A stretch of 64,000 nt of DNA from a virus (taxonomy: Duplodnaviria; Heunggongvirae; Uroviricota; Caudoviricetes), in IMG/VR virus record IMGVR_UViG_3300017565_000001, positions 77,741-141,740 of that record. One strand, given 5' to 3'. A model generated the notes under the pieces. That model was not told the DNA's origin. It was given only the letters and a program-made list of their open reading frames with translations, and ran no database searches. Numbering within the stretch: the first letter of the stretch is position 1; every line of letters begins with the position of its first letter. Shown piece after piece: positions 10,634 to 58,384 of this stretch. The translations under genes were made by a program, and so were the position numbers.

Positions 10634-12205
10634 ATGTTAAAGTGTAGCCACAGAATAAGCTGTCAACCAACAATAAGAACAATGATTAGACAGAAAAAAT
10701 ACGGTAATGATTGGGCAATATTTTTGCCCTCGATTTCACAAATGTACGTTTTGGCACATGCAAAGGGCTGGGGTCGTATGCCAGTTGACTTTGATCTGCT
10801 GAACTTCGTTGATGAAGCGAACGCTCATCACTTCCACTATCCATACGCCCTGTATTCGGCCGGCCATGCTTACTTGGATCCCCAAAAGAGCAATGAACGT
10901 GAACCCATGATTCAAGGCCGTGATCGTACCAAGACGATTATGGTTGGTGACTCGGGTGGGTTCCAGGCCGCAACCGGCGTCCTGGATTTTGACTGGCAGG
11001 ATCCATTGAGCCAGAAGTCGATCGATCAACGCTTGGAGTTGATGCGCTGGCTTGAGCACACGGCCGAATACAGTATGGTTCTTGATTGGCCGGCTTGGGC
11101 TATTGACACTGGACGTCTGCCTCAAACCCTTATGGTTGCAGATCCCACGACTTCGCCCATGCAAGTCACGAACGATCCGTTCAACAACTGCTTGAAGGGC
11201 ACAATCTGGAACAATGAATTCTTCATCAAGAATCGCACACCAGGAGCCACCAAGTTCCTAAACGTTCTGCAAGGTCGTTCAATCGACGAAGCAAACGTGT
11301 GGTATGACGCAGTGAATCAGTTCAGCAGTGTTGAGAAGTATGGTGATCGAGCATTCGAGGGTTGGGCTCTGGGGGGTAGCACCGGGGGCGATCCCAGCCT
11401 CACCATGCGTCTTTTGATTCGACTGCGCGACGACGGACACCTTAATGGTGATGATCGCTGGATTCACGTCCTAGGGCGTTCCAGGCTGTCAACTGCCGTG
11501 TACTTGACGTCACTGAACCAAGCACTCAAACAACACGTAAATGAGAACTGTCAGATCAGCTACGACGCATCAAGTGCGTTCCTGTACTCGGTTAATGGCA
11601 CATACGTGACTGACTTCAATGTGTCACCCAAGCATATGGGTCTAGTGAGCGCTGACATTCCAATGGGTGCTCAATACGTGGGAAGCAAGGAACCCTTCAT
11701 CTATGCAGGTGTGTCTGCTGATCGTTTGGCCGATCCCACCCACTATAAGTCACCAGCCAGCAAGTTGCTGACTATGGGTGATTTGATTCTAGCTCCTGAC
11801 GAAAAGTCCAAGAAGCCATACAGGATGGATACTGCGTCCTACTATTACTTGATGGCGCATAATGTCCAGATGCAATTGAATGCTCTGGAATATGCAAACG
11901 CAAAACTGGACGCCCCCGATGCTGTGGATCATATTCCTGCCATCTTCCTGGAATTCAAGGACTTTGTGCATCGTTTGTTCACTACCGAAACGCCCATGGA
12001 TTTGATCGAACGTGAAGCTGGTAAGTTCAAGGATTTGATTTCTGGTGAGCGTGCTGGTGTTAGCGCACTGGAAAATCAAGAACTGTTCCCCAAGACAGCT
12101 GGTCTGGAAACGATCACGACTGACAACCGCGCCAAGAAGAAGGCACAAAAGCCGCCCAAGCCCGTGGAACCCACTAGTATGTTGGACGCTTTGCTGGCCA
12201 AGTGA
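10634..12205 (+). CDS. dpdA: DpdA-like DNA transglycosylase (tRNA-guanine transglycosylase superfamily)
   Basis: GDSGGFQ catalytic-Asp motif of TGT/DpdA. GWALGGSTGGD at the TGT GG-loop position. No CxCxxC...H zinc site, as in DpdA. Start likely at one of the ATGs at 10743-10790. Basic KKKAQKPPKP tail. Confidence 0.65.
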   Translation: MLKCSHRISCQPTIRTMIRQKKYGNDWAIFLPSISQMYVLAHAKGWGRMPVDFDLLNFVDEANAHHFHYPYALYSAGHAYLDPQKSNEREPMIQGRDRTKTIMVGDSGGFQAATGVLDFDWQDPLSQKSIDQRLELMRWLEHTAEYSMVLDWPAWAIDTGRLPQTLMVADPTTSPMQVTNDPFNNCLKGTIWNNEFFIKNRTPGATKFLNVLQGRSIDEANVWYDAVNQFSSVEKYGDRAFEGWALGGSTGGDPSLTMRLLIRLRDDGHLNGDDRWIHVLGRSRLSTAVYLTSLNQALKQHVNENCQISYDASSAFLYSVNGTYVTDFNVSPKHMGLVSADIPMGAQYVGSKEPFIYAGVSADRLADPTHYKSPASKLLTMGDLILAPDEKSKKPYRMDTASYYYLMAHNVQMQLNALEYANAKLDAPDAVDHIPAIFLEFKDFVHRLFTTETPMDLIEREAGKFKDLISGERAGVSALENQELFPKTAGLETITTDNRAKKKAQKPPKPVEPTSMLDALLAK

Positions 12206-12429
12206 TGGAAGATACCATTCTATTCTTCAAAGCCGAGTATTTGGGTGAAGTTAGGGAATGGCTCGAGGCCATGGGGGTTAACCCCCATGACGCCCTAAGC
12301 AAATTCCCCAAGTTACGGATAGATGGAATTGAGATCTTGATCCTCCCAGATCCGGATCTACAGATGATGTTCAAGCTCGCATTCAGCCATGCCGTATCAA
12401 ACAAATCAATCAAGATAACAAAGATATGA
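12202..12429 (+). CDS. small protein of the FKL(R/A)F-motif family
   Basis: Contains DPDLQMMFKLAFSH near the C-terminus. Paralogous to the 12900 gene. Confidence 0.5.
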   Translation: MMEDTILFFKAEYLGEVREWLEAMGVNPHDALSKFPKLRIDGIEILILPDPDLQMMFKLAFSHAVSNKSIKITKI

Positions 12430-12495
12430 TTGACGTTTGCTACTAATTGACAACGGGCCACCAATAAGCCATACTGAATACACTAACAAGGAACT

Positions 12496-12903
12496 TTGAT
12501 GTATAACAACCCCGTCCCCGTAGCTGTGGGGATTGTGCCAGTTTATGGCGATGATCAAACCGAACGCTTTCTGTTTATTCGCCGAGCAGTGGCACCAATT
12601 GGTGGTGTGGCTTGTGTGAGTGGGTACGTTGATGAACACGAATCCGCAGAACAAGCAATGGCAAGGGAATTCAAGGAAGAGGTTGGTATCGAGACTCTTC
12701 CAGAAAATTGGGTTGTGTTTGCCACCCGCTGCTCGGCGCACAATCGTCTGTTGGTATTCATGAAGCTAGTCAACTACCTGGTTCATGAAGATGACCTGAA
12801 TAGCTTTGTGCCCAATACCGAGGTTTCGGAAGTTCTAGTGGGCGATCGCCATACTGAACTTGTGTTCCCTTTGCAATCGGAAATTCTCAGCAAGCTCCCG
12901 TGA
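12496..12903 (+). CDS. Nudix hydrolase
   Basis: Nudix box GYVDEHESAEQAMAREFKEEVGI (GX5EX7REUXEEXGU). Confidence 0.8.
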   Translation: MMYNNPVPVAVGIVPVYGDDQTERFLFIRRAVAPIGGVACVSGYVDEHESAEQAMAREFKEEVGIETLPENWVVFATRCSAHNRLLVFMKLVNYLVHEDDLNSFVPNTEVSEVLVGDRHTELVFPLQSEILSKLP

Positions 12904-13166
12904 AGATCTATCACATTCACTATCAACAGATTGACGCAGTTACTCAATGGTTATTGGACAACAACGTCAAGCAGGAGAGTAATCCCCTACAATACTTGTC
13001 GGGGGTAGCGTCAGGCAATTCGTCTCGTCCCCTGAGAATGGTTCGCATATGGACTAGTGAAAAGAATTCGAAGCCATCAGGCTATTATGTGAACATCGAA
13101 GACCCCAATCTGATGGCAATGTTTGTTCTGGCCTTTAGTGAATACATCAAGGCTTACGATTTGTAA
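12900..13166 (+). CDS. small protein of the FKL(R/A)F-motif family
   Basis: Contains DPNLMAMFVLAFSEY. Paralogue of the 12202 gene. Confidence 0.5.
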   Translation: MKIYHIHYQQIDAVTQWLLDNNVKQESNPLQYLSGVASGNSSRPLRMVRIWTSEKNSKPSGYYVNIEDPNLMAMFVLAFSEYIKAYDL

Positions 13167-13224
13167 TTTGCAAATAACCACATCCACACCTATACTAAAC
13201 ACTCCATAAAACAAGGATAACAAC

Positions 13225-13743
13225 ATGGATCGCAATCAACCTGTACGTTTCTTCAAGGGCCTGGAAATCGAGGCCACCAACCACTTCCTGCAACCCACCA
13301 TGATCGCCCCTGGCCAGTATGACTACCAGGAATGCAAGGACATGGTTGTTGAACACAACTGCACTCACATTCTGATCGGTTTCATGTATGATCCGGCTGG
13401 TAATCCGCTGGATATGGACATTCCTCGTGCGTTCGAAACCGCCAACAAGCTGATGGCTGATGGCATTCGCGTCACTCTGGAAATTCGTCCGGACCAACTG
13501 ACTGACGAGTTCGTGGCAGCTTGCCCGGAACCCGACAGCGAATTCGGTAAGCTGTTCGTGATCCTGATCGGTACCCGCTTCCCCCGTATGGACAAGATCG
13601 GTGCCTACACGACGCTGAAGCTGCACAGTGATTTCGGCAACACCGAAAACGGTGGCGTGTGGTGTGTGAAGGCTGAAGACTTTAAGGAAGCTGGCATCTT
13701 CACTCCTTGGGTAGCTTACGAATTCGACGAGCACCTCAAGTAA
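13225..13743 (+). CDS. hypothetical protein (codon-optimised, probably abundant)
   Basis: 172 aa. Strong C/G third-position codon bias unlike neighbouring genes. Confidence 0.55.
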   Translation: MDRNQPVRFFKGLEIEATNHFLQPTMIAPGQYDYQECKDMVVEHNCTHILIGFMYDPAGNPLDMDIPRAFETANKLMADGIRVTLEIRPDQLTDEFVAACPEPDSEFGKLFVILIGTRFPRMDKIGAYTTLKLHSDFGNTENGGVWCVKAEDFKEAGIFTPWVAYEFDEHLK

Positions 13744-13768
13744 TTTGATTTACTGTTGAATAATATAT

Positions 13769-13786
13769 GGGGAGCCATTGCTCCCC
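13769..13786 (+). terminator. stem-loop (possible terminator)
   Basis: GGGGAGC-CATT-GCTCCCC. The downstream T-run is weak. Confidence 0.4.
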
Positions 13787-13798
13787 ATAAACATAAAC

Positions 13799-14452: not shown

Positions 14453-15091
14453 TTGACTCTTGCACCAAACATAGGATACATTATGACGTATGACGTCAAA
14501 ACTGAGGCGGCGCTTGCGCAATTGCGGCCCATTCCGTATAGCTTCTCGTTTATCGAAATGCGAAAATACTTCGCTACGGTTCGAGTTGCTCAGGAACATC
14601 CGGCCGTATTCAAGCAGGGTATGCGCAACATTCATGGCTTCACTGATGAGCGACTTGATGCCGAGGTGAATAGTTCCTTCGATAAGAAGGTGTACTCGTT
14701 CATGTTGAACATCATGTTGGTCGAATATGAGCTGGACGAATTCAAAAATCTACAAGAATACGAGGCTTTGCCGTACTCCCTTTTGGGCCTCGCTCACTTG
14801 TACGCCTCAGGTACTGTTCGCCAAGATCAAGCAAAAGCTCTGTTTGATATGGTGATGGGAAGGCCGGGACTTAAGCTGGATGAAATTCTGATCCTAACCA
14901 ATTTTCTTCAGGAACAACCCATCGCCAACCTGGATGCCATCATCATGCAGGTCATCGCCAACAATCCCAAGCCCATCCAGGAATACAAATCTGGCAAGGA
15001 GAAGGCACTGGGTGCTGTCATGGGTCAAATCATGAAACAAGTTAAGGGTGACGCTTCTGCAATTCGTTCCCGTTTGTTGGAACTCATCTGA
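14453..15091 (+). CDS. GatB/YqeY-domain-containing protein
   Basis: C-terminal IQEYKSGKEKALGAVMGQIMKQVKGDASAIRSRLLEL matches the YqeY/GatB C-terminal domain (YKAGKEK...G.FVGQVMK.TKGKANP). Confidence 0.55.
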   Translation: MTLAPNIGYIMTYDVKTEAALAQLRPIPYSFSFIEMRKYFATVRVAQEHPAVFKQGMRNIHGFTDERLDAEVNSSFDKKVYSFMLNIMLVEYELDEFKNLQEYEALPYSLLGLAHLYASGTVRQDQAKALFDMVMGRPGLKLDEILILTNFLQEQPIANLDAIIMQVIANNPKPIQEYKSGKEKALGAVMGQIMKQVKGDASAIRSRLLELI

Positions 15092-15119: not shown

Positions 15120-15887
15120 GTGTATCATCTGGTTCTTATTCATTTAGGGGGTACCATGGCTGCTGATCGTGCAAGTTTTATTGACCTGATCATCAATGAT
15201 AATGGCGTCACGTTCGGCGCCCTTAAGCTTTCCGAGATCATGGCACAGGGCAAAACCCAAGAAGCAGTCTTGGCCCGCCAGGATTACCTGGCACATCCAG
15301 CAGTAAGGGCTGCGAGCGAATCCGACCTTTTTCACATCGAGCGCTGGTTCACCCATGCAATCGAAACCACCAAAGTCATTCGTGGCCGAGAGATGGAATA
15401 TTTCCTGGAGCGATATCGCCAATATGGCCTTGACGTAGAAACGTCCGTGGGTCCGCGTCCCTACAGCTTCAGCGTGACTCACCACCATGACGGGGTACCG
15501 TACGCTCTGTACCACAATCAAGCCCACGTCGGCCAGTTTGATGTGTCCAAGGTAAAGCACAACATGGAGCACATCCTGCCTTTGATCGAGCGCCATCATG
15601 ACATGATCAAAAGCATTTACGATTACCTGAAAATGAAAGTTGAGGGAGATCTATGGGTCTTGAGTGGTGGTGGTTCCCAGCTGCAAGCATTCTTCACCAA
15701 CAAGACTGGCTATTTGGGTATCTTGTATCTGGACATGGTGAATCTGAGTGATCAGACCCGTTTGAGTGATAGTGGTTTACTCAAAGCCTCTGGGAACGAA
15801 TCGTTCACCCTTGTACCCAATTTCGACCACAACAAAACGCTGTTCAAGAATATGAAAGTACCAGGGGTTAAAGTACGACGTGCCTAA
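15120..15887 (+). CDS. hypothetical protein
   Basis: 255 aa ORF. Start possibly at 15156. Confidence 0.5.
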   Translation: MYHLVLIHLGGTMAADRASFIDLIINDNGVTFGALKLSEIMAQGKTQEAVLARQDYLAHPAVRAASESDLFHIERWFTHAIETTKVIRGREMEYFLERYRQYGLDVETSVGPRPYSFSVTHHHDGVPYALYHNQAHVGQFDVSKVKHNMEHILPLIERHHDMIKSIYDYLKMKVEGDLWVLSGGGSQLQAFFTNKTGYLGILYLDMVNLSDQTRLSDSGLLKASGNESFTLVPNFDHNKTLFKNMKVPGVKVRRA

Positions 15888-16125
15888 ACTCTTGTACCTG
15901 GTCGTCACCGGGATTCCTTCTCCCGGTGACATGACACCGGCATTTTTTGACTTGCTGGACTTCATCAACAATGTTGGTACTGATCAATGTTCATTCTCCA
16001 GAATGAACAAATCGCTCTATGAGAAGCACCATGAAGCCATGATCATTTTCAAGGATCAGAACGATTATGTGCGATTCAAACTGCGATTTTCTGATGACTT
16101 TGCTATACGAACGGCCCACTGTTAA
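15880..16125 (+). CDS. small protein of the FKLRF-motif family
   Basis: C-terminal NDYVRFKLRFSDDF. Confidence 0.5.
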   Translation: MPKLLYLVVTGIPSPGDMTPAFFDLLDFINNVGTDQCSFSRMNKSLYEKHHEAMIIFKDQNDYVRFKLRFSDDFAIRTAHC

Positions 16126-16686: not shown

Positions 16687-16929
16687 ATGTTCATAATAAA
16701 ACTGCTAGTAACAAAAGTCTCACCAGAAGGAAATATCTATCGCGCGATATTAGAATGGTGCAATCAAAATGATATTCCATTCCATGAAATAGGAATGGAG
16801 GCAGATGACTGGGATCATCGTATTCGGATGGGAACGGTGCAGATTACCAAGCTCACCCAATTCCAATACATTGAACTCGCGCATGTTCTAAATGGTGATT
16901 ATCAGGTCGAATTCAGGTATTTGCCATGA
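16687..16929 (+). CDS. hypothetical small protein
   Basis: 80 aa ORF. Ends VEFRYLP, a degenerate family motif. Confidence 0.4.
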   Translation: MFIIKLLVTKVSPEGNIYRAILEWCNQNDIPFHEIGMEADDWDHRIRMGTVQITKLTQFQYIELAHVLNGDYQVEFRYLP

Positions 16930-17186
16930 AAGTAATGAACATCGACGTGCTGGCATATGAAGACGAAGGGTTGGCGTTTATTGTTGATCTCGAAGATTTA
17001 ATTTTGAACGACTCGGCGTTCAAACACGTAAGAATAGTCAGATGCATAAATCGATATTCATACGAACGAACTAATCGCAAGTATACCATCTTTTCAAAAA
17101 TAACAGGCTTGAGTGACGAACAGATAGTGATGTTGACGTTGAAACATTCTGGAATCATCCAAATCAAAGTTAACCGTTTGCCCTAG
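16926..17186 (+). CDS. hypothetical small protein
   Basis: 86 aa ORF coupled by an ATGA overlap. Confidence 0.4.
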   Translation: MKVMNIDVLAYEDEGLAFIVDLEDLILNDSAFKHVRIVRCINRYSYERTNRKYTIFSKITGLSDEQIVMLTLKHSGIIQIKVNRLP

Positions 17187-17208: not shown

Positions 17209-17490
17209 ATGCCATACTGCGAGCACTTTCATAAAGGATCCCAAATGTCCGAAGTTGACCACCTGAAGAACACCAAGACGAAGTCGCTGGAAGATGACAG
17301 CAAGATTTCGGAAGCCGAACTCCATGCAACTCATCCGCACATAAAAGAAGGTTGGGACGACCTGCAAGCTCTACGTCGTGAAATTGCGCTGAAGAAGCAA
17401 GAGGCCAGCCGCAAGGTCGACGCTGAATATAAGGAACGTCTCACTGAGTTGAGCGACAACTACGCTCTTCTGTTGACGATGTCGAGGTAA
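17209..17490 (+). CDS. small coiled-coil protein (cassette copy 1)
   Basis: Ends NYALLLTMSR, paralogous to the 24361 gene. Coupled by GAGGTAAGCATGTCG to the next gene. Start maybe 17245. Confidence 0.55.
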   Translation: MPYCEHFHKGSQMSEVDHLKNTKTKSLEDDSKISEAELHATHPHIKEGWDDLQALRREIALKKQEASRKVDAEYKERLTELSDNYALLLTMSR

Positions 17491-17492
17491 GC

Positions 17493-18569
17493 ATGTCGGT
17501 AACTATTCCCGAAAAGGTGTACGTGGGGTTTCAGGGTCGGCGCGATCAAGACGAAGTACCACTGGGTTTCATGACGCCGTACACGGATGACGAGGCTGGC
17601 AAGAAACGCCAGTCAACTGTTGATCAATGGGCTGGCGGTCGCAACTACGGCAAAACCAAGACGTTCAACAGTGTCATCATCGACAACGAACCCATGTATG
17701 GATTCCGACTGGGACGTGCGATTCGTCGTTCGGGCCACTTTGGCTCCGGTGCCTCGTATGTTCGTATCGAAGACCCCAGGGGCTTTGAGCTGGAAATCAG
17801 CATCGAGAACTTGGTTGCTATTCTGGAAGACGTTGCGATGGAGCGCTGTGAATTCGTGGGCGCTCTTATTTGGGGCCGTGTTGCCGGCAGTCAAAAGAAC
17901 CTGCTTATGGCGGTTGACAGCGATCTGTATCGTGGCGCAGTCAAAACCAAGGCAGCAGTTGCCCAGGCCCTCCCATGCAAAGATTTCAGTATTGGCGACA
18001 AGATCGAAGCAGTGACTGGTGAAACCGGCATCTACATGGGTATGCTGTATGGCGTATCTGATGGTTGGAAAGAGCCCGAAACCATGTCTGGCAAGAAGCC
18101 GGTACTGAAAGTCACGTATGATGACAATTCCGTAGAATACGTGGGGTTCGTGGATCTCAAGGGTTCCATCTTGGAGAAGCATACTGGTAATGCGTTGACG
18201 GTTCAGGATTCCGAAAACGAAATCGCTGCCGCCCTAGCCGTCAATCAGTTCATATGCGATTACAAGGGAACAACAGACGTTATCGCCTGGTTCGCCAAGA
18301 AACCACACATTATTTCTACCCACAAGGCAGTGGGTGAAGATCAAATGCACGTTCTGTTTGACAACGACCCGAGTTCATATTCGTATTTCAAATGTCGAGT
18401 AGGTTATGGCACGGAATACACTATGAAGCGCGATGACAATCGAGTGATTACGATTCAAAAATCCTATCACTATAGCAGTCAGCCCACCCATATCAATATC
18501 GAATGGGACAAAGTTGAACTCGCCGGCCATAAGATCAGCAGCGCGACTAATTCCGTCGACTATTTCTAA
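17493..18569 (+). CDS. hypothetical protein, paralogue L1
   Basis: Shares VYVGFQGRR...PLGFMTPY...KRQ.TVDQWA...FNSV...PMYGF.LGRAIRRS...ASYVRIEDPRGFELEISIENLV with the 18578 and 24603 genes. Confidence 0.65.
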   Translation: MSVTIPEKVYVGFQGRRDQDEVPLGFMTPYTDDEAGKKRQSTVDQWAGGRNYGKTKTFNSVIIDNEPMYGFRLGRAIRRSGHFGSGASYVRIEDPRGFELEISIENLVAILEDVAMERCEFVGALIWGRVAGSQKNLLMAVDSDLYRGAVKTKAAVAQALPCKDFSIGDKIEAVTGETGIYMGMLYGVSDGWKEPETMSGKKPVLKVTYDDNSVEYVGFVDLKGSILEKHTGNALTVQDSENEIAAALAVNQFICDYKGTTDVIAWFAKKPHIISTHKAVGEDQMHVLFDNDPSSYSYFKCRVGYGTEYTMKRDDNRVITIQKSYHYSSQPTHINIEWDKVELAGHKISSATNSVDYF

Positions 18570-18577
18570 GGAAGCAA

Positions 18578-19912
18578 ATGAACGAACTTTCCACCATCAA
18601 GATCCCGCAAACCGTTTATGTGGGCTTCCAGGGTCGTCGTGCAGTCGATGAGGTTCCTCTGGGGTTCATGACGCCCTATGATGAGACCAAGGCAGGCCAG
18701 AAGCGCCAGCAGACGGTTGATCAGTGGGCGAAAGGTTGGGGGAGTAACAAGACCTTCAACAGCGTGACTCTGGAAAACGTTCCCATGATCGGCTTCAAGA
18801 TCGGCCGGGCAATTCGCCGCAGTCGTTCTTGGGGTGGAAATGCTTCCTACGTGCGCATCGAGGATCCGCGTGGTTTCGAACTGGAAATCAGTATCGAGAA
18901 CATGGTCATGGTGATGGATCAAAACATCGTCGAAGACGGTGAGATCATGCAAGAGTGCGTGTGGGGCCGTGATGGTGGCAAAAACATTCTGTTGCCAACC
19001 AACAGCGAACCCTATCAGGCTTCCCTGAACACCACCAAACGCCTCAATGCCGTTCTGTCTCTGAAGGACGTCAAGCCGGGCAGCAAGGTGAAACTGGTGA
19101 CTGGTGAAACCGGTATCTATTACGGTTCGCTCTATCCAATCTTCATCAAACATGAAGCCGAACATACGGATACTCGTTCTGGTTACCGCCACGAACGAAA
19201 TACTACAGAGGTGTACACCCCGGAAATTCGTGGGACGAAACGGTACATTCTGTATACGTCGAAGGGTAAGAAGGGAACCTTCAACGTTTACGCAAGTATC
19301 AAAGTGGCCGAAGTTTTGGAGGAAGCCAAGGAAAAGCTCAAGCCCCAAGATGTCGAGAAGCTGATTGCCACAAAGATTGCCGAAGGCAATAATAAGTTTG
19401 TCAATCATGTAAGCTCGACCAGTTACTACGATCGATTCGTGGGATTGGCGGCCGATCAGACGCTTGACTACGCGATCGTCCAGAAAGACATTGCAGAAGA
19501 TTACGCAAAGACGTTGAAGCACAATCGATATGGAACGACTTACGCCAGTCGTTCCATCTACATGGAGAGTGCTGATGGTCAAATCTATACGGCCAGCAAT
19601 GGTTACATGGATTTCACAACCAACTTCCTGCAGGCAAAGAATACTCCGCGTAAGTATGCGAATATCATGCTGTGTCCGAATCCTGGCAGTTATTGGTCCC
19701 GACATGATGCTGAGATTGAAGTTCAAGGCGGTTTCATCGGCATCAAGGCTGATCTGACAGAAGAAAAAGTTACCGAGTACAAATTCCATCAGCAACAATG
19801 GCATGTGACTGATGAAGAGTTGAAGCGTCTGTTCGTGCTTGACGTGGTGATCAAACTGAAGAGTGGTGAACAATATGTCTATGACTTCGGACGTCAAGAC
19901 ACCGACGACTGA
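18578..19912 (+). CDS. hypothetical protein, paralogue L2
   Basis: N-terminal ~110 aa are near-identical in pattern to L1. 444 aa. Confidence 0.65.
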   Translation: MNELSTIKIPQTVYVGFQGRRAVDEVPLGFMTPYDETKAGQKRQQTVDQWAKGWGSNKTFNSVTLENVPMIGFKIGRAIRRSRSWGGNASYVRIEDPRGFELEISIENMVMVMDQNIVEDGEIMQECVWGRDGGKNILLPTNSEPYQASLNTTKRLNAVLSLKDVKPGSKVKLVTGETGIYYGSLYPIFIKHEAEHTDTRSGYRHERNTTEVYTPEIRGTKRYILYTSKGKKGTFNVYASIKVAEVLEEAKEKLKPQDVEKLIATKIAEGNNKFVNHVSSTSYYDRFVGLAADQTLDYAIVQKDIAEDYAKTLKHNRYGTTYASRSIYMESADGQIYTASNGYMDFTTNFLQAKNTPRKYANIMLCPNPGSYWSRHDAEIEVQGGFIGIKADLTEEKVTEYKFHQQQWHVTDEELKRLFVLDVVIKLKSGEQYVYDFGRQDTDD

Positions 19913-20609: not shown

Positions 20610-21266
20610 ATGGCACTATCATTCTCAGGCCAATTCTTTATGGCCATGGTCCTTGACCGTAATGCACCTAACGAATTTCACGTATCTGTATGGGAACTCG
20701 CCCAGCCACAATTGGCGCAGAAGGCGACCTATCTCAAAGTGAAGGGGGACGATTCTCGGTACCATAAGGCTATCGCCTTTGAACATGAGGCTGACTTCCA
20801 AGCCTTTAATTCATGGTGGAACGAGTACAAGCTGCTAGTCGGCGATGCCATCAAATATCGAGCACTTCCGGAACCTGGAGATGGTGAAGTCATTTCAGGT
20901 GTCATGGTGAAGCATAATCCACATGCGGAGTGGGGGCGAGATCGTTTCCCTACACCTGATGAGTTTCTGGTGGAGTGGTCTTGGATCGTTGAAACTTGCT
21001 CAAGTAAGGTGTGGTGGACACCCTGCCATTGGATCTTCCAAAGCCAGGAAGAAGCAGTCATGTTCAAACTGCATGACGAAGGCAATAAGCGTAAGGACGT
21101 CACCAATGACAATTACGACCCCTACAGGTTTAGGCACGATTATCAACTTGACTCGTTCTCCTCTGAATGTTATGATATGGACGATGAAGGAGAGCAGGAT
21201 AGTCCTATGAGTTTGGAAGATCTCATATCTAGACAATTAAAGAAGAGACCAACTGATTGGCTGTAA
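20610..21266 (+). CDS. FKLRF-motif family protein (large member)
   Basis: FEHEADFQAFNSWW and SQEEAVMFKLHDEG, plus an acidic tail. Homologous to the 27144 and 23638 genes. Confidence 0.55.
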   Translation: MALSFSGQFFMAMVLDRNAPNEFHVSVWELAQPQLAQKATYLKVKGDDSRYHKAIAFEHEADFQAFNSWWNEYKLLVGDAIKYRALPEPGDGEVISGVMVKHNPHAEWGRDRFPTPDEFLVEWSWIVETCSSKVWWTPCHWIFQSQEEAVMFKLHDEGNKRKDVTNDNYDPYRFRHDYQLDSFSSECYDMDDEGEQDSPMSLEDLISRQLKKRPTDWL

Positions 21267-21288
21267 AGAAGGGGAGCATATGCTCCCC
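21267..21288. terminator. bidirectional intrinsic terminator
   Basis: AAGGGGAGCATATGCTCCCCTT between convergent genes. Confidence 0.6.
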
Positions 21289-21292
21289 TTCC

Positions 21293-21911
21293 TTATGGTA
21301 ATCCGTGCAAACCAGAAAACGGTGCGTACCAGTAATTGAGTTTGTTCTCACCAGGCCGATCACGGTCAGGAGCATAGAACGTAAACCCGTCATGCAGCCA
21401 CTCTTCAAAACTGAGAAGTGGCGACAGATTGCCAATAGCCCAGTCACGGGCGTGGACAGCCAAGAAGTCACAACGAAGGTTGTATACGGTCTTGTCATGA
21501 CCTTTGACCTTCACGAACCGACTGTTCTTCAAGTATTCCAGACAGTGGTTGATTAGGTCCTTTTCGGCCTGATAGAACGTCGCGCACACGTTCTTCAACC
21601 GCTCGATCGTGTTGGAGTTCTGCAGTTTGCCCGTCAAAACACACGAACGATTGACGTCGCATACCGCACTGTCGTCGGTGTAGAACGTCAGCTCGTGGGG
21701 CATATGACCCGATTCCACCAGGTATCGGACTGACTCCACGAATGCTACCTTTTCATGGTAACCCGAATGCTTGGGTTGAGCTCGAGCATGACAACCGAAG
21801 CGTTCGACTGCCTGATCACCAGTAAGGGCAACCATACCCCATGACAACAGACATTCCTTGCTCTGATAGTGACGGGCCGAACCACCATCCATGTAAACAA
21901 TAGTATGGGCC
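21293..21911 (-). CDS. rnhA: ribonuclease H
   Basis: IVYMDGGS (first catalytic Asp motif). VKVKGHDKTVYNLRCDFLA resembles the RNase HI C-terminal VKGHAGHPENERCDELA. ORF is open to 21940. Confidence 0.75.
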
Positions 21912-21914
21912 ATA

Positions 21915-22151
21915 TTACTGCCAGAGTGCGGACTTACCATCCGTGTATTCGATGGTTTCGGGCATGTCTTCGGATTTCACTTGCGTGATGATGTTCTTCG
22001 CGAAATAAACGATGAACATGCCGGGCTGCGAAGGGTTGCGTTGAACTTGGCAAGCCTTGCCAGCCTTGTACGTCTTCGTGGTTCCGGTTCCGATCACTTT
22101 TGCAACCAGTTCCTTCTTGGTTTTTGCGGGGCGGGGTGCAGCGTAGCTCAT
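21915..22151 (-). CDS. hypothetical basic protein
   Basis: 78 aa ORF. Confidence 0.4.
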   Translation of the reverse strand: MSYAAPRPAKTKKELVAKVIGTGTTKTYKAGKACQVQRNPSQPGMFIVYFAKNIITQVKSEDMPETIEYTDGKSALWQ

Positions 22152-22225
22152 CTGGATTTCTCCTTGTTCATCATGTTTTGTATTATAGATGAATGTTCAT
22201 ATGAAGTAAAGACTTTTCACCACAT

Positions 22226-22260
22226 GAAAAAAGAGCGGTGGGATTTTCGCCCCACCGCTT
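22226..22260 (-). terminator. intrinsic terminator for the CCA-enzyme gene
   Basis: AGCGGTGGG-N8-CCCACCGCT stem. On the minus strand it is followed by a T6 run. Confidence 0.6.
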
Positions 22261-22352
22261 AAGTGATGAACTACCTTTCGCAAACCGCAGCTATGCAATG
22301 AGGAGCAAAGCTACTAGACCGCATTCTAGCGGCCCTATTGTGAAACGCAAGC

Positions 22353-23567
22353 TTACATGGTTTGATTTTGCATATATTGCAACAAAGCCTCACGTGACAC
22401 GTTGCAATCGTTGTAGAACCAGTATTCCCGCAGGCGCTTCAACGCCGCACCCAAGTCAGGACCAGGTTTCACACCCAACGCCTTTAAGTCATCACCACTG
22501 ACCGGAAACGTCGCTAATTGAAACTTACCGTCCAGGCCTCGCTTCAGCAAATTAACGGCGTAGTCAACATCAAAGTAAACTGCCGCGGCAAAAACCAACT
22601 CCAGCTTCCGCCCCATGACGAAATACTGATACAGGATTTCGGTCGCAGTGACAGCGTAGTCATATGAGACGATGTGCTTGACTACGTCGCGTTCAGCGGA
22701 ACGCCATTTCAATGCCTTGGCAGTTTGCTCAACATGTGCTTCATCGCGCATGAAAGGTGCGAGCAAAACAGCCGCCTGATTACCAAGCATGTGCCGAGCC
22801 ATACTGTCGTGCAACTTTTTGAACCATTCCATGGACGCGGAATCACCGTTAGGCAGAGCAGTATGCTCACTCAAACCCATCTCCATCATGAGGGGATAGA
22901 TCCAATAGCCGCTGAAATGTTCGAGGATCTTGGATGTTTCAGTCCAGATCCGTTCGACACTGATGCCACGCAATCCATGAACACAGTTGCGGATTTCTTG
23001 CTCGGGCAATATGGACTTCAGCTTTTCAGGATGCGGTTGCACTGGATGCATACGGCCCAAGAAACGAAAATAGCGCAAGATGCGCAGATAGTCTTCCGTC
23101 ATACGACCTTCTGCATCACCAACAAAGCGGACGATTCTGTTTTCCAGATCAGCTTGGCCGCCGAAAGGATCCAACAGATTGCCGTCGAAATCAAGCGACA
23201 TTGCATTGATGGTGAGGTCACGACGTGACAAGTCTTCAACCCAGTCACGAGTGTAGGTCATCTTAGCGTAACGGCCGTCGTGCTCGTCCTCAGTACGCAG
23301 ACTGGTGATCTCGTAGGATTCATCCTCCAGAACTACAGTCAGTGTGCCATGCTGCAAGCCCGTTTCCACATACTTGATGCCATGCTTCTGATACAATGCC
23401 AATTGCTCATCAGGGAAGGCGTCAGTGCAGAGGTCCACGTCATGGGGCGGCTCGTTGTTCAGATAATCTCGCACACACCCGCCAACCAAACGCAGGTCAA
23501 AGCCCTCCTGTACGAACAAGTCGCGCAGCGCACGCAAGGGAAGAGGTATCATTTGATTGAGGTGCAT
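22353..23567 (-). CDS. cca: tRNA nucleotidyltransferase (CCA-adding enzyme), class II
   Basis: GGCVRD head motif and RDLTINAM. 404 aa. Confidence 0.85.
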   Translation of the reverse strand: MHLNQMIPLPLRALRDLFVQEGFDLRLVGGCVRDYLNNEPPHDVDLCTDAFPDEQLALYQKHGIKYVETGLQHGTLTVVLEDESYEITSLRTEDEHDGRYAKMTYTRDWVEDLSRRDLTINAMSLDFDGNLLDPFGGQADLENRIVRFVGDAEGRMTEDYLRILRYFRFLGRMHPVQPHPEKLKSILPEQEIRNCVHGLRGISVERIWTETSKILEHFSGYWIYPLMMEMGLSEHTALPNGDSASMEWFKKLHDSMARHMLGNQAAVLLAPFMRDEAHVEQTAKALKWRSAERDVVKHIVSYDYAVTATEILYQYFVMGRKLELVFAAAVYFDVDYAVNLLKRGLDGKFQLATFPVSGDDLKALGVKPGPDLGAALKRLREYWFYNDCNVSREALLQYMQNQTM

Positions 23568-23637
23568 GTGATCTCCTAAGTTTCATCTAGTATATAGGTA
23601 ACCCTGCCAGTAATCAAGTGAAGCTACAATTTCTTTA

Positions 23638-24321
23638 TTGACGATATGGCACATACCGTGCATTATGACTGGCATGAACATCCTATCCAAACTTTTCTAT
23701 TTCCTTACCGGCCAGTTCAACATCCGTTTCAAGACTCGCTATGATGAAGACAAGTATGATCCTTGTGAGGGTGAGACGCTTATTGCCGATGACTACATCA
23801 GTTCTGAGATTGAAGATCAAGATGGAGAATTTGATTTCCTGACTCTCAATGATCGCTTGCATGACGGGCGCCCACTCTTGACGGTAATCAATCATCTTAT
23901 GACGGATGAACTCAAATTCCACATTGCTGTATGGTGGAAGCAAGCGGTTGTTGATCGATCCGCCTATACGTTCTTCATTCATCGAGTTGACGGTGATCGT
24001 TATTTGATGATGATGACTGACAACCAGCAAGCCAAAGACGATGCAAGCGCTTGGTTTGCGGATTATTTTGCCAAGTTTCAGGACGACAAATATTTGGAAC
24101 AATTCGTTCCGGCCCTTCCGGATGGGGAATTCCATGGCCACGTATTGTTCCGTAATACGTATGAAGATCCCAATCCACCAACGATCTTCCAAACGTGGAC
24201 TTATATTTTGACAAACTTCCACGGCAAAGTTTATCGTACTCGCTTGGATCGGCATCGAGACATCTTCTACTTTGAGGACGAAGCTGAACTCCTAATGTTC
24301 AAAATGCAGTTTGTCAAGTAA
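23638..24321 (+). CDS. FKLRF-motif family protein (large member)
   Basis: C-terminal FEDEAELLMFKMQFVK. Confidence 0.55.
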   Translation: MTIWHIPCIMTGMNILSKLFYFLTGQFNIRFKTRYDEDKYDPCEGETLIADDYISSEIEDQDGEFDFLTLNDRLHDGRPLLTVINHLMTDELKFHIAVWWKQAVVDRSAYTFFIHRVDGDRYLMMMTDNQQAKDDASAWFADYFAKFQDDKYLEQFVPALPDGEFHGHVLFRNTYEDPNPPTIFQTWTYILTNFHGKVYRTRLDRHRDIFYFEDEAELLMFKMQFVK

Positions 24322-24360: not shown

Positions 24361-24600
24361 ATGTCTGAAGAATACCTTAAAAGCGCCAGAGCGGCTGGCG
24401 CTGCTACCTCCAACGTAACTGAAGCAGAATTGATGATCACTCGCGAAGAAATTCGCGAATCCTGGGAAGCCCTGGAGAGCGTTCGTCTCAAGATCTATCA
24501 AGCAAAAATTGACGCGGTAAATGGTGTCGATTCTCAGTTCCATGATGAACTCAAGGATGCCGAAGCCAATTACGCAATGCTCCTTCAGTTGTCGAGGTAA
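24361..24600 (+). CDS. small coiled-coil protein (cassette copy 2)
   Basis: Ends NYAMLLQLSR. Junction GAGGTAATCATGTCA matches the copy-1 junction. Confidence 0.55.
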   Translation: MSEEYLKSARAAGAATSNVTEAELMITREEIRESWEALESVRLKIYQAKIDAVNGVDSQFHDELKDAEANYAMLLQLSR

Positions 24601-24602
24601 TC

Positions 24603-25796
24603 ATGTCAGTCAATCATAGTATTCAAATTCCCGATCAGATGTTTGTGGCTTTCGTTCGTAGCAATCAGGATGGCTACGTCCACAAAGGTTATACCATTCC
24701 CTATGGCACTGACTCAGCTTCCAAGAAGCGCCAACTCAACTTGCGGCATTCAACCCATGCCGATCGTGAAGGTGGGCTTGAGCCAGTAGTCTTGGAAAAT
24801 AAACCCATGTACGGGTTTAAGATTAGCCGCAAGCTTCGAGCAAACGGCTGGCGTTCTGATATTCAAACCGTTAGCATCGAAGATCCCAGAGGTTTCGAAT
24901 TTGAAGTTTCGGTTGCCAATCTGATCATGCTTACCGACAGCAATTTGATTCATAATGGCGAAATTATTCAGCAATGTGTATGGGCTCGCGATGGTGCAAT
25001 CAACATTTTGCTTCCAATCAATAGCCAACCATATCTGGATGCCGTTGTGAACACTGAGCGGGTATCCAAGCGAGTCAATACTCGATCGGTAAAACCAGGC
25101 AATAAGGTTCTCCTGCATGATGGCATTAAGGGTGTTTACATGGGTTCCATGTATACCATCATGCGTGATTACAACCGCAACTTGAGCATTTCACAAAAGA
25201 AGAAACACATCGTTCGTGTTGAAGGCGATAGTGGTACTTCGGTGGAATATCATGGTTACCCAACAATGAAAATTTCCGAGGTGTTGGATTCCACTCCCCA
25301 AACCAAAGAAGCATTGAGCCAACAGTTGGTGAATGACATCAAGGATAAGACGGTTACATTCCGGAAAGTCACGTCTGGCTATGGGCATGTGTCAACGCTC
25401 ACGTATGGTGACACCTTGATCTTTGCCAAGAAGGAACGGCGGTCGATTTCATACGATGAAGCTATGAAAGCCAAGAGCAACAGTTCGATTTTGGGCGTTT
25501 ATGATGACGAATGTTACCTGATCGAAGGCAACAGTATGGACCCCAATTATCGGTCTTATTACTACCGAAGCCTGGGAGTTGATGAAGTCCAGGCTGTGAA
25601 GATCAACGTATTTGCTTTGGATAAAGGCACGATTGAAATTGTTCAAGAGTACAATATCAACTCATCAAGTTATTACCGTAGTAGGGAACAGAAAACCTAT
25701 CAGATCAACAAGGATGAGATTGACTATTTTGTCTTAGAGTTGACGCTTAAGGATTCTGAGACCAACGTCAACTTCCACGTTAACGATTTGAAATAA
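24603..25796 (+). CDS. hypothetical protein, paralogue L3
   Basis: PMYGFKISRKLRANG...SIEDPRGFEFEVSVANLIMLT is collinear with L1 and L2. Confidence 0.65.
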   Translation: MSVNHSIQIPDQMFVAFVRSNQDGYVHKGYTIPYGTDSASKKRQLNLRHSTHADREGGLEPVVLENKPMYGFKISRKLRANGWRSDIQTVSIEDPRGFEFEVSVANLIMLTDSNLIHNGEIIQQCVWARDGAINILLPINSQPYLDAVVNTERVSKRVNTRSVKPGNKVLLHDGIKGVYMGSMYTIMRDYNRNLSISQKKKHIVRVEGDSGTSVEYHGYPTMKISEVLDSTPQTKEALSQQLVNDIKDKTVTFRKVTSGYGHVSTLTYGDTLIFAKKERRSISYDEAMKAKSNSSILGVYDDECYLIEGNSMDPNYRSYYYRSLGVDEVQAVKINVFALDKGTIEIVQEYNINSSSYYRSREQKTYQINKDEIDYFVLELTLKDSETNVNFHVNDLK

Positions 25797-25837
25797 TGAG
25801 CCACACCTCCCATGTAAATAGCCTGGGAGGTGTTCAT

Positions 25838-26413
25838 ATGAACAAGCCAATCATTTATATCCATGGAGCTTTTAGTACCAAACAAAGCTTCAATTGGATA
25901 GTAGAAAAATTACCCGAGCATCGTGCATATTTTATCGAGTACGACGCTAGGGATTCAGTAAAAAGTGTGGCAAAACGAGTCAATACCCTAGTTGAAGAAT
26001 TGGGCGGAGCCGACATAGTGGCTCATAGTCTGGGTGGGCTGGTAGCTTTGTTAGCGGCACTTGATAATCCTTTGGTGGGGCGGGTGATAACAATCAGCGC
26101 ACCAATGGGTGGTAGTGATGTAGCTGGAACATTGGCATGGTTGAGTCCGCACGAGCTGTACCAAAGCTTGAACAAGATGGGCCCAGTCATAAGAAAGATT
26201 CATTCATCTAACATTTCTTTCCCACTCTGTAGTATAATCACGACTTCTGGTGGTAGCCCAATGATTAGTGGCGCCAACGACGGAGTAGTATCAGTACAAA
26301 GCCAGAAGGCATTGACTGGTACTCGTCAAATTGAAGTGGACTTGAATCACTTTGAAGTGTTGATGAACAACAATGTGGTTACACTCATAAGGGAGTTTCT
26401 GAATGGTGCCTGA
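25838..26413 (+). CDS. alpha/beta-hydrolase (lipase/esterase-like)
   Basis: IYIHGAF and GHSLGG nucleophile elbow. RBS GGGAGGTG before the ATG at 25838. Confidence 0.65.
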   Translation: MNKPIIYIHGAFSTKQSFNWIVEKLPEHRAYFIEYDARDSVKSVAKRVNTLVEELGGADIVAHSLGGLVALLAALDNPLVGRVITISAPMGGSDVAGTLAWLSPHELYQSLNKMGPVIRKIHSSNISFPLCSIITTSGGSPMISGANDGVVSVQSQKALTGTRQIEVDLNHFEVLMNNNVVTLIREFLNGA

Positions 26414-26891
26414 ATTCATCATGTTGATTGGTTTGCCTGGGTGTGGGAAGTCGACCATCATCAAACTGATCCGCGAGGTGAAGCCCCATCAAGAATATGT
26501 GGTGACAAGTTCAGATAATATGATTATGGAATATGCTGCCAGAAATAATCTGAACTACCGAGAAGCACACGACGCCCTCGATCCCATAGTGCTTCGTAAC
26601 ATGCTGATTGAACAAGCGGCTGAGCTGTTCAGCCGTAATATGTCCATCATCAATGATCAAACGAACTTGAACGATGACATCCGTAAGGCCAAACTGGCAA
26701 TGGTGCCACAACATTACATCAAACGCGCTGTGGTTATCAAGAAGCCCATTGATGTCATCCTGCGCCAACAGAATTCCCTCGAACGCTTGGCGCAAGGGAA
26801 AACTATCCCCAGTGAAGTAATGAACAAAATGATCTCCGAGTTCACTGATCCTGATCCCAAGGATTTTGATGAGATCGTAGTCGTACAGTAG
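26403..26891 (+). CDS. P-loop kinase (AAA_33/PNK-kinase-like)
   Basis: MLIGLPGCGKST Walker A at the N-terminus. 162 aa. Confidence 0.6.
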   Translation: MVPEFIMLIGLPGCGKSTIIKLIREVKPHQEYVVTSSDNMIMEYAARNNLNYREAHDALDPIVLRNMLIEQAAELFSRNMSIINDQTNLNDDIRKAKLAMVPQHYIKRAVVIKKPIDVILRQQNSLERLAQGKTIPSEVMNKMISEFTDPDPKDFDEIVVVQ

Positions 26892-26921
26892 AATTAACCT
26901 GTCAATAACGAGAAAAATAAA

Positions 26922-27134
26922 ATGACACAAGACTCCAAAGTATATGGCCCTTACTCGGGCTTTCAAATGTTGTGCGCAGCCGTCGCCGTGCTGTGCTTGA
27001 TGGCACTGGTTGGCATCATCGGCTTTTTCCCCACCATTCTGTTGCTGGGTTTCTTCACTGCAATGGGCCTCGCGGTTGTTTACGGACGCCCTGGCATCAT
27101 CGAGAACTTCAACAAGAAGCATGATACCGAATAA
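26922..27134 (+). CDS. small membrane protein
   Basis: Two hydrophobic helices. 70 aa. Confidence 0.45.
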   Translation: MTQDSKVYGPYSGFQMLCAAVAVLCLMALVGIIGFFPTILLLGFFTAMGLAVVYGRPGIIENFNKKHDTE

Positions 27135-27143
27135 GGCAAAACC

Positions 27144-27770
27144 ATGAATTTGGTTATGGTTCCGCCACCTTTCGCTGTGGGAAATGGTCGAATTATGGGT
27201 AACGGCATATCAGCCGAAATATACAACCACAACCCAGATGTGATAGTGCATACGTCCGGCCAAGGATCGGTTATGGGATACGGTCGAGTCAACTCTATTA
27301 CGAGTACAGACACCTTTCATTATGACCCAATGGCCGATTACAAAAGTTGGTATGGGTTGGAAGCATCTAGCGTCTTCACTATGATGAACGACGACGAAAT
27401 AATGGCAAGGGTATGGGATCGTTCTGAATTCAACCAATGGTTAGCCCAAAATGTAAAGGACTTGGTGCTAGTTCAGCGTCATTGGCCATCTTGGGTGCTA
27501 GTATTCAAAAGCGAAGCAGATTACCATTCCTTTATTACCTGGTGGACTTATACCGAAAAACAAGAGAAGATGTTCTTACCAATACCGGCTGAATATCAAG
27601 GTAAGAATTACGTGTTCATTCGAGAACTCAAGGAATGGTGTGATGCCAATCTTGTTGACAAATTTGAGCTCGCAAGTCAATCCAGTCGGGTGAAATGCAC
27701 CATCAGAGATCCCCAGGAAGCAGTTATGTTCAGGCTTCGTTGGTCGGAACCAAATAATAACCAACTCTGA
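27144..27770 (+). CDS. FKLRF-motif family protein (large member)
   Basis: FKSEADYHSFITWW and DPQEAVMFRLRW. Confidence 0.55.
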   Translation: MNLVMVPPPFAVGNGRIMGNGISAEIYNHNPDVIVHTSGQGSVMGYGRVNSITSTDTFHYDPMADYKSWYGLEASSVFTMMNDDEIMARVWDRSEFNQWLAQNVKDLVLVQRHWPSWVLVFKSEADYHSFITWWTYTEKQEKMFLPIPAEYQGKNYVFIRELKEWCDANLVDKFELASQSSRVKCTIRDPQEAVMFRLRWSEPNNNQL

Positions 27771-58372: not shown

Positions 58373-58384
58373 GGAATCACATCA

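Follow-up and report, generated by a model that had tools for sequence, protein, structure and literature searches.

A family of small, diversified domain proteins encoded in a tightly packed gene array and at dispersed sites of a large phage genome

The DNA analysed here (hereafter the window) covers 64 kb of a 424-kb phage genome and carries a tightly packed array of ten genes, six dispersed ORFs that resemble them and a possible further relative. The original prediction had picked out the six dispersed ORFs by a short shared motif, and all six, with the peptides quoted for them, are present, though two of the starts had to be corrected. Both the gene caller and the orthologues place the start of 23638-24321 at ATG 23665 (218 aa) and that of 12202-12429 at ATG 12205. 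Members are referred to below by their start positions.

12205..12429, + strand: single-domain member, 74 aa; signature at 12328-12384 (IEILILPDPDLQMMFKLAF); helix-1 block GEVREWLEAMGV
12900..13166, + strand: single-domain member, 88 aa; signature at 13080-13136 (GYYVNIEDPNLMAMFVLAF); helix-1 block AVTQWLLDNNV
15880..16125, + strand: single-domain member, 81 aa; signature at 16033-16089 (EAMIIFKDQNDYVRFKLRF)
16687..16929, + strand: possible remote relative, 80 aa, matching in the helix-1 block only (IYRAILEWCNQNDIPF)
20610..21266, + strand: two-domain member, 218 aa; first-copy signature at 20763-20819 (HKAIAFEHEADFQAFNSWW), second-copy signature at 21021-21077 (PCHWIFQSQEEAVMFKLHD)
23665..24321, + strand: two-domain member, 218 aa; second-copy signature at 24256-24312 (RDIFYFEDEAELLMFKMQF)
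27144..27770, + strand: two-domain member, 208 aa; first-copy signature at 27489-27545 (SWVLVFKSEADYHSFITWW), second-copy signature at 27687-27743 (RVKCTIRDPQEAVMFRLRW)
57542..57595, + strand: hairpin (dG -20.9), TTTT and then an extended -10-like sequence, TGCTACAAT, directly upstream of the first array gene
57624..60876, + strand: ten-gene tightly packed array, most junctions being ATGA- or GTGA-type overlaps
Array genes 1-5, + strand: 57624-58034, 58031-58372, 58385-58738, 58735-58968, 59025-59354
Array genes 6-10, + strand: 59354-59707, 59698-60018, 60015-60398, 60398-60652, 60652-60876

An earlier count of at least 16 paralogues agrees with the ten array and six dispersed genes found here, which hold 19 domain copies and total 5.9 kb, or 9.2% of the window. 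The three single-domain genes overlap their upstream neighbours: the start of 12205 overlaps the stop of a DpdA/TGT-like gene (TGATG), 12900 overlaps a NUDIX gene (GTGA), and 15880 overlaps the 3' end of a 255-aa gene by 8 nt. All six dispersed ORFs have conserved orthologues in related phages. The 12205 protein is 82% identical to its orthologue P0019, the motif of 12900 is kept in P0016, P0018 and P0020, that of 15880 is 100% conserved in P0015, and that of 27144 is invariant in 4 orthologues whose overall identity is about 60%. Orthologous arrays in related phages contain 12 (L007) and 9 (L008) genes, as compared with 10 here.

The motif is real but longer than the core first noted, since all six dispersed ORFs carry a 19-residue ungapped signature, h-x-h-x-F-x-D/S-x-E/D-x-A-h-x-F-K-L-R-F/W; the equivalent C-terminal block in a profile built from other phages reads h-x-h-x-F-x-x-E/D-x-D/x-A-x-x-F-K-L-R-W/F. 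Similarity also extends beyond this stretch, to a second block common to the family that lies in helix 1, 30-50 residues upstream of the C-terminal block, and follows the pattern E-h-x-x-W/F-L/C-x-x-N/G. The aligned helix-1 blocks read EVREWLEAMG in 12205, AVTQWLLDNN in 12900, DLLDFINNVG in 15880 and ELKEWCDANL in 27144, with EVEEYLESVG and similar strings in array members. The proteins of about 210 aa contain the domain as a tandem duplicate, and two-domain forms also occur elsewhere (P0030, P0042, P0044 and P0067). An upstream F(E/K)xEADxxxFxxWW block, previously listed for these proteins as an additional feature, turns out to be the same signature in the first domain copy. Two of the three proteins, 20610 and 27144, have this copy in recognisable form (hhalign P about 3e-4; the WW pair is invariant in orthologues), but in 23665 it is degenerate, with MMMTDNQQAKDDASAWFADYF at the collinear position, about 24010-24066. 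In 100 of 116 matches from other phages (86%) the protein stops within 2 residues of the block, and proteins of the window array and 23665 likewise end at the domain, while 20610 continues for 62 residues as an acidic tail and the other dispersed members for 8-14.

Several profile comparisons bear on whether the dispersed and array genes are homologous. When leave-one-out motif HMMs were run on 1143 six-frame segments of the window, 15880 (19.5 bits), 20610 (12.0), 27144 (11.2), 12205 (10.2) and 23665 (9.0) scored above all decoys, the best of which reached about 8.5 bits and the next about 3; 12900, the weakest member on window data alone, failed this test at 2.9 bits. An HMM built solely from 41 sequences of other phages, a sample that is not fully independent because it was retrieved with a window-derived profile, placed 14 of the 16 genes above all decoys at 12.1-35.8 bits, namely 8 of the 10 array genes and all six dispersed ORFs, the latter at 12.5-35.8 bits against a window decoy maximum of 6.4; array genes 57624 (4.7 bits) and 59698 were not detected. 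Scores with this remote-only HMM were 17.6 bits for 12205, 18.5 for 12900 (model positions 22-77), 28.9 for 15880, 12.5 for 20610 and 17.5 for 23665. N-terminal domain copies were weak or undetected, as in 27144, where the C copy scored 35.8 bits and the N copy 9.2. The alignments of 27144, 12900 and 12205 to this HMM cover both blocks, and those of 20610 and 23665 only the C-terminal one.

Profile-profile comparison, which the original prediction had proposed as a check, is consistent with these results. In an all-against-all comparison of orthologue groups, with 28 control groups as the null, 62 of 153 family pairs exceeded the null 99th percentile, as did 22 of 72 dispersed-array pairs, against an expectation of 0.7. 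Individual hhalign comparisons linked 12205 to the C-terminal domain of 27144 (45 columns, P = 3.9e-5), 12900 to 12205 (P = 4e-5) and 20610 to the 23665 group (125 columns, P = 4.7e-4), and a profile alignment of 27144 with array member 60652 covered 38 columns in the region that precedes the motif (P = 3e-4). The proposal that the dispersed ORFs and the array belong to one family is thus borne out by the other-phage profile, the helix-1 block and the profile-profile pairs. As judged from sequence, the link between the two groups became solid only through the external family profile. The 16687..16929 product, at 8.6 bits with the remote-only HMM (just above decoys) and P = 0.017 by hhalign to 27144, is possibly a remote relative.

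AlphaFold2 (AF2) models built on shallow alignments (pLDDT 55 and 77) predict a small beta-alpha-beta-beta-alpha domain in which the signature supplies the final strand and the C-terminal helix; the pLDDT is 80-94 over the motif, which is modelled as a packed strand and amphipathic helix. In the model of 27144, two beta-alpha(-alpha)-beta-beta-alpha units span residues 77-141 and 144-200, and residues 1-74 are predicted to be disordered; the model of array gene 58031-58372 (pLDDT 76.7) has strands at 48-53, 67-69 and 94-99 and helices at 55-63 and 102-112. This predicted topology is that of the two-layer sandwiches seen in secretin GspD N-domains, ACT, RRM, KH and MESD, and structural superposition on generic sandwiches covers 54-60 residues at 2.1-2.3 A. 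As specific assignments, RRM was rejected on the RNP1/RNP2 consensus and the Pfam RRM_1 model, neither of which is matched, and ACT and the secretin N-domain on Pfam family membership. The first unit of 27144 does have the KH topology, but its inter-helix residues are V-W-D, with no GXXG and no Pfam KH match. We consider the best explanation, at a confidence of roughly 0.6, to be that the six ORFs and the array form one old, fast-diverging family built on a beta-alpha-beta-beta-alpha domain of about 55-65 residues.

The family reaches well beyond the window. Exhaustive searching with the profile yielded 65 proteins at E <= 0.001, of which about 35 are small proteins from outside the clade of the window phage; the remainder either belong to that clade or are eukaryote-like repeat proteins, the latter numbering a dozen. 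The 116 domain matches in loci of other phages include those of the cultured Sinorhizobium jumbo phage Phosso, and 99 of the matches fall in 21 IMG/VR loci. Arrays of 8-15 genes occur in six loci (L016, L017, L019, L020, L022 and L028), another locus (L009) has 10 members in 20 kb, and Phosso has 7 members in 40 kb. Uncultivated large phages commonly carry the family, mostly as tandem arrays, and its earlier description as an orphan family does not survive the matches in Phosso and many metagenomic phage contigs. It is nevertheless new to protein-family libraries and without database description: Pfam, PHROGs, NCBIfam and PADLOC hold no model for it, and PDB sequence profiles and BFVD gave no match.

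Across the family, the codons of the signature show a strong bias. The motif Arg codon is AGG in 36 of 77 cases, against 4% for the remaining Arg codons of these genes (7e-31), and AGG is used in 16 of 22 coupled but only 20 of 55 uncoupled cases (P = 0.005). The Leu-Arg codons of array signatures are preferentially TTG AGG, so that the following gene, whose start overlaps, has a GAGG ribosome-binding site 5-8 nt ahead of that start, and junction strings such as AAGTTGAGGTTYATGTGA are repeated at array gene boundaries. The array shows no enrichment of promoter-like sites (11 versus 9.5 expected), and the hairpin and -10-like sequence at 57542..57595 are a possible terminator/promoter boundary of its transcription unit. 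The array is probably a single translationally coupled operon, and the junction sequence of about 20 nt at each gene boundary would favour unequal recombination, leading, we infer, to the gain and loss of gene cassettes.

The observations above must be weighed against other explanations for the shared motif, of which chance is the least probable. If the dispersed matches merely reflected a recurrent strand-turn-helix pattern not homologous to the array, one would expect the loss of signal that is seen when the 19-residue block is masked: on window data alone, no array-dispersed similarity is left, so that the window-only link rests almost entirely on this block. Similar strings also occur in unrelated folds (e.g. 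'LAIRFKTPEEAALFKCKF' of a RanBD, E = 0.17), and 12900 lies below the leave-one-out threshold. However, the remote-only profile lifts all six ORFs above the decoys in alignments that in several cases include the separate helix-1 block, the excess of dispersed-array pairs is far above the null, and no part of any orthologue group is better conserved than the motif (81% identical versus 62% for the remaining protein; Fisher 2e-20). Chance is largely refuted, and we give it next to no credence. The codon bias raises another prospect, in which the C-terminus is imposed mainly by a DNA or RNA junction signal, either the next ribosome-binding site or a recombination site like T4-type promoter-stem-loop cassettes, and the amino-acid motif is a by-product. 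The strength of the AGG preference, its link with distance from the next start and the recurring boundary strings all agree with such a signal, yet synonymous changes are seen in the codons for F, K and L and in those of the upstream strand, which argues for a protein motif rather than a DNA repeat, and the Arg residue is kept in the 41 of 77 cases where its codon is not AGG. Dispersed members, which lack a coupled downstream gene, have the motif, as do internal copies (20610 and the N-terminal copies), and GAGG cannot account for a helix-1 block 35-50 residues upstream. We therefore regard a junction origin of the motif as very unlikely.

Somewhat less remote, though still improbable, is that the C-terminal FKLRW-x is a tag that takes unrelated proteins to a common machine, as a phage ClpX degron or adaptor or by capsid packaging like T4 internal-protein targeting, and is not an element of a fold. 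C-terminal basic ClpX recognition motifs are known, and ClpX is encoded near family members in both of the genomes compared, the window (4856-6109) and Phosso; the 86% of members that end at the motif and the high variability upstream of it would also suit a tag. Against this, ClpX tags are exposed C-terminal peptides without structure, whereas the AF2 models pack the motif and tail into the domain, the conserved positions are mostly hydrophobic with helical periodicity, the helix-1 block co-varies with the motif, and the motif is internal in 20610 and in the first copies of two-domain proteins. About as improbable is a small nucleic-acid- or ligand-binding module of RRM, KH or ACT-like type, which would make the family RNA or DNA regulators, possibly tied to nearby RNA-repair and translation genes. 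A weak Pfam match of 15880 to BRAP2 (RRM-like, E = 0.08), the conserved K and R on the last helix, neighbours encoding a CCA-adding enzyme, an AAA_33 kinase, an RNA ligase and IF-3, and the position of Phosso members between a nucleotidyltransferase and a polynucleotide kinase point in this direction. The family nonetheless shows no RNP1/RNP2 or GXXG motifs and no Pfam match, and regulators would not normally be expected in dozens of divergent copies per genome. Most members are acidic, and the pI, with a median of 6.1 in window members and 5.0 in remote ones, is not uniformly basic, which argues against a general nucleic-acid binder.

For a single family with a common fold, a working model can be sketched. 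The hydrophobic core of the scaffold would consist of the W of helix 1, the strand F and the A, F, L and W of the last helix, while specificity may be carried by the variable N-terminal extensions and the loop between helix 1 and the strand, which ranges from 5 to 40 residues. Single-domain members probably pair through their sheets, as suggested by the fused two-domain forms. As to role, a tentative suggestion, likened to poly-immunity arrays, is that these are diversified small protein-binding factors directed against variable host targets, acting in host takeover or in the neutralisation of defences and toxins. Tandem poly-immunity arrays of small alpha+beta immunity proteins (SUKH, Imm) in polymorphic toxin systems were reportedly described by Zhang, Iyer and Aravind in 2011. 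The likeness lies in tightly packed divergent paralogues of one small alpha/beta domain, in fast gain and loss between close relatives and in fused two-domain forms. In contrast, the phage family has no sequence or profile match to immunity families (Pfam, PADLOC), and its array has no adjacent toxin genes and is carried by a lytic-type giant phage; that its members inhibit host toxins is a hypothesis.

Other expanded viral gene sets offer partial parallels. In T4-type hyperplastic regions, small early genes are shuffled by promoter-stem-loop (PeSL) cassettes, and in the T4-type internal-protein locus unrelated proteins share a short capsid-targeting sequence. Like these, the family consists of small, fast-evolving accessory genes of a large phage, with copy number varying between relatives and a short shared sequence at each gene boundary. 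The shared element here, however, is a folded C-terminal protein motif with an embedded ribosome-binding site, unlike the intergenic promoter/hairpin or cleaved N-terminal peptide of T4-type phages. PeSL cassettes as such were rejected, the array genes overlapping with no intergenic elements and the conservation being at the protein level. Giant eukaryotic viruses also have multigene families that have expanded and share a conserved C-terminal module, for example the poxvirus ankyrin/PRANC proteins. These resemble the phage family in their many paralogues, variable target-binding part, conserved C-terminal element and large viral genome, but there is no homology, and what is conserved in the phage proteins is a very small domain's structural core.

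Taken furthest, the binding-factor role would make the FKLRW genes a cassette arsenal of giant phages, in which one minimal scaffold presents a different specificity surface per gene and its conserved C-terminal helix docks on a shared partner (e.g. ClpX or another hub), the outcome being that diverse defence or toxin proteins of the host are blocked or destroyed; the embedded ribosome-binding site and repeated junction sequence would make the array self-expanding and translationally coupled. This full scheme is speculative, and we think it distinctly less likely than the general binding role. Large phages give much of their genome to small genes annotated without a function, and this one family accounts for 9% of the window. 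It is experimentally approachable, having a clear signature, a predicted fold and a culturable carrier in Sinorhizobium phage Phosso, and the doubling of protein-motif codons as the ribosome-binding site of the next gene is a testable feature. Should its members prove to act against host defences or in takeover, the arrays would point to a strategy general among giant phages.

All six dispersed ORFs, and the peptides quoted from them, lie where the original prediction had placed them, with the starts of the fifth and the first corrected to 23665 and 12205, on which the gene caller and orthologues agree; after start correction the array (57624-60876, plus strand) contains 10 genes. In an ungapped core alignment the dispersed proteins (d12202, d12900, d15880, d20610, d23665 and d27144, named by start) and the array proteins have in common a 19-residue C-terminal block, not 6-8 residues, with the consensus h-x-h-x-F-x-D/S-x-E/D-x-A-h-x-F-K-L-R-F/W. 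Across 15 orthologue groups this signature is 81% identical, against 62% in the remainder of the proteins (Fisher 2e-20), and since its codons vary synonymously it is a motif of the protein.

Tests confined to the window gave a limited answer. Pairwise BLASTP and jackhmmer similarities were mostly marginal, with links only for 20610-23638 and some array members. An array-trained HMM scored four dispersed ORFs higher than any of the 1,100-odd decoys (other six-frame segments of the window) and next after the array genes used in training, the reciprocal HMM from the dispersed ORFs recovered four array genes, and in a leave-one-out analysis 5 of 6 dispersed ORFs outscored all decoys, the exception being d12900. 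Once the 19-residue block was masked, HMMs of the sequence preceding the motif detected no array-dispersed signal, so that the window sequence alone would back little more than an extended motif.

Related phages supplied further comparisons. The window belongs to a 424,547-bp metagenomic contig of a giant phage (ENA ERZ27256359); when compared by megablast with GenBank phages, the region matched none, and the phage has no close relative there. Its DpdA/TGT-like protein is ~30% identical to proteins in PA5oct-like Pseudomonas phages, a Vibrio jumbo phage and Sinorhizobium phage Phosso. With Phosso (28455-33186) the window (726-6658) also has in common the gene order type II topoisomerase large subunit, two small genes, ClpX with a zinc finger and complete IF-3; a phage-encoded IF-3 together with ClpX is unusual cargo. 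Conservation across related phages, raised as a check on the original prediction, was evident in Logan assemblies, where each of the six dispersed genes, and the array too, has orthologues in relatives with ~60-70% protein identity. The all-against-all profile alignment proposed at the same time covered 18 groups of the family plus, as controls, 28 groups taken from the same genomes; scores above the null 99th percentile were reached by 62 of 153 family pairs and by 22 of 72 dispersed-array pairs. Similarity reaches well past the motif in some pairs, namely d12202 with the C-terminal half of d27144 (45 aligned columns, P = 3.9e-5), d27144 with array gene 60652 (38 columns ahead of the motif, P = 2.9e-4) and d20610 with d23665 (125 columns, P = 4.7e-4). 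Between the d27144 and d23665 groups, hhalign found no similarity.

An exhaustive search of 1.84 billion representative proteins, using a profile of 18 window domain copies and four related-phage orthologues, returned 65 matches at E <= 0.001: 12 eukaryote-like repeat proteins, all matching helix 1 only and rejected, ~35 small proteins from outside the window phage's clade, and the rest from within it. The long top-ranking proteins (P0021-P0026 and P0024, with PEEVEEYIDENG repeats) match helix 1 only and were rejected as false positives; these and P0035 top the search because their 'PEEVEEYIDENGxRVRRIV' repeats mimic the helix-1 block, a further conserved block upstream of the signature, which is a caution for future models of the FKLRW family. 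The outside small proteins, annotated only as 'hypothetical protein' at source, carry a first block 'P-E-V-x-E-W-L-x-x-N' and a C-terminal block 'h-x-h-x-F-x-x-E-E-D-A-V-x-F-K-L-R-W-x-stop'. An HMM built solely from 41 outside sequences placed 14 of 16 window genes above all decoys (decoy maximum 6.4 bits), scoring d27144 at 35.8, d15880 at 28.9, d12900 at 18.5, d12202 at 17.6, d23665 at 17.5, d20610 at 12.5 and eight array genes at 12.1-28.9 bits, and several of the alignments span both conserved blocks. These scores settle family membership, d12900 included. Three further ORFs resemble the family by eye (helix IYRAILEWCNQNDIPF, ends ..RYLP and ..NRLP, FFYDDEEDEELVLKWGG): 16687-16929 lies marginally above decoys with the same HMM (8.6 bits), and 16926-17186 and 27828-28025 fall below significance and were not accepted as members.

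AlphaFold models from shallow alignments predict for d27144 a disordered N-terminal part followed by two beta-alpha(-alpha)-beta-beta-alpha units in succession (residues 77-141 and 144-200); in array protein 58031 one beta-alpha-beta-beta-alpha unit is predicted, together with a helix at the N-terminus and two additional strands (pLDDT 76.7). The signature corresponds to the last strand and final helix of each predicted unit. The 'F(E/K)xEADxxxFxxWW' block that the original prediction assigned to all three longer members is clear in 20610 and 27144 and degenerate in 23665; it represents the first unit's copy of the signature. Two-domain forms recur among the outside members.

Each small dispersed gene overlaps the 3' end of the gene before it, to which it is unrelated (DpdA-like, NUDIX, or a 255-aa gene of no assigned family), and genes of RNA-repair, translation and signalling type cluster around the dispersed members:
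12496-12903, NUDIX protein
14453-15091, GatB/YqeY-domain protein
22353-23567, minus strand, CCA-adding enzyme
26403-26891, AAA_33/KTI12-type kinase
28207-28803, GGDEF protein
32723-33754, RNA ligase

RNA-repair-type genes are near the family in Phosso as well, where members are flanked by a nucleotidyltransferase gene and a polynucleotide kinase gene. A second paralogous family occupies 17245-19912 and 24361-25796, each of its small ORFs preceding large ORF(s):
17245-17490, small ORF (81 aa)
17493-18569, large ORF
18578-19912, large ORF
24361-24600, small ORF (79 aa)
24603-25796, large ORF

The large ORFs share 27% identity (E = 2e-31), are conserved in related phages and have no Pfam match. 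No common promoter class was found for the FKLRF/FKLRW family: sigma-70-like sites were not enriched upstream of its genes, nor was a candidate TTGAC-GATATGGC string enriched. Two candidate transcription signals lie at the array:
57542-57595, strong hairpin (dG -20.9) with a T-run, then an extended -10-like TGCTACAAT, immediately before the first array gene
58971-58999, promoter-like TTTACA-17-TAGAAT, in the array's only internal gap

The family extends to other phages. Ten members lie within 20 kb in an ENA phage (contigs of 134-234 kb) and 7 within 40 kb in Phosso, every one annotated 'hypothetical protein'; tblastn with d27144 and three family members found no other cultured carrier. An IMG/VR scan with an exact DNA pattern encoding D-A-x-A-F-K-L-R-W identified 21 loci, distributed over 19 contigs (six exceeding 200 kb). 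In these loci the family HMM found 99 domains and arrays of 8-15 genes; IMG/VR scans using the d27144 alignment returned no relatives. In 100 of 116 HMM matches the protein ends <=2 residues past the motif. A literature search found no mention of the motif and nothing relevant on jumbo-phage paralogue families. What had been termed an orphan family is instead widespread but undescribed, given the small proteins outside the clade and the arrays in other phages. In the related phage L007 a further dispersed member (19447-19824, 15.2 bits) lies ~3 kb past the counterparts of the window's right-end genes; the window phage genome probably holds more than the 16 copies found in the window.

Array genes are gained and lost between close relatives. 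The arrays of three phages comprise 10 (window), 12 and 9 genes; in L007 a tandem pair of additional paralogues (132 and 141 aa) is inserted at 10351-11171, compared with window 58372-58385, and the L008 array lacks a counterpart of 59698-60018. AGG encodes the motif Arg in 36 of 77 genes (47%) but makes up 4% of Arg codons elsewhere in those genes (7e-31); it is more frequent in the motif when the next start lies 3-13 nt downstream (16/22 vs 20/55, P = 0.005). The Leu-Arg codons favour TTG AGG, which yields a GAGG(T) Shine-Dalgarno 5-8 nt ahead of the next gene's overlapping start. Junctions of this type occur in the arrays of L007, L008 and three other loci (L013, L016, L020) and in the window at:
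57972-58034
58676-58738
60593-60652

Window junctions in which the next gene overlaps the stop (n=3) read (T/C)TG AGG TTY, and those with a spacer (n=2) have CGT or CGC. This dependence of AGG on start distance indicates that the motif doubles as a GAGG ribosome-binding site, and array genes would thus be translationally coupled; the repeated ~20-nt junction sequence could also promote gain and loss of cassettes.

A ribosome-binding signal is not the cause of the motif, because protein-level conservation extends to the other residues of the signature, to the helix-1 block, to internal copies and to dispersed genes that are not coupled. As to function, rival readings are that the signature may serve as a C-terminal tag, either for ClpX or for packaging, or that the proteins may be RNA- or ligand-binding regulators; family pI values, which are mixed to acidic, argue against a general nucleic-acid binder. 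We tentatively prefer, at a probability of roughly 0.3, to read the conserved minimal scaffold with its variable periphery as that of diversified small binding proteins acting against host targets. The finding itself is real: this is an undescribed, widespread family of a kind already known, the expanded sets of small accessory genes in large phages.
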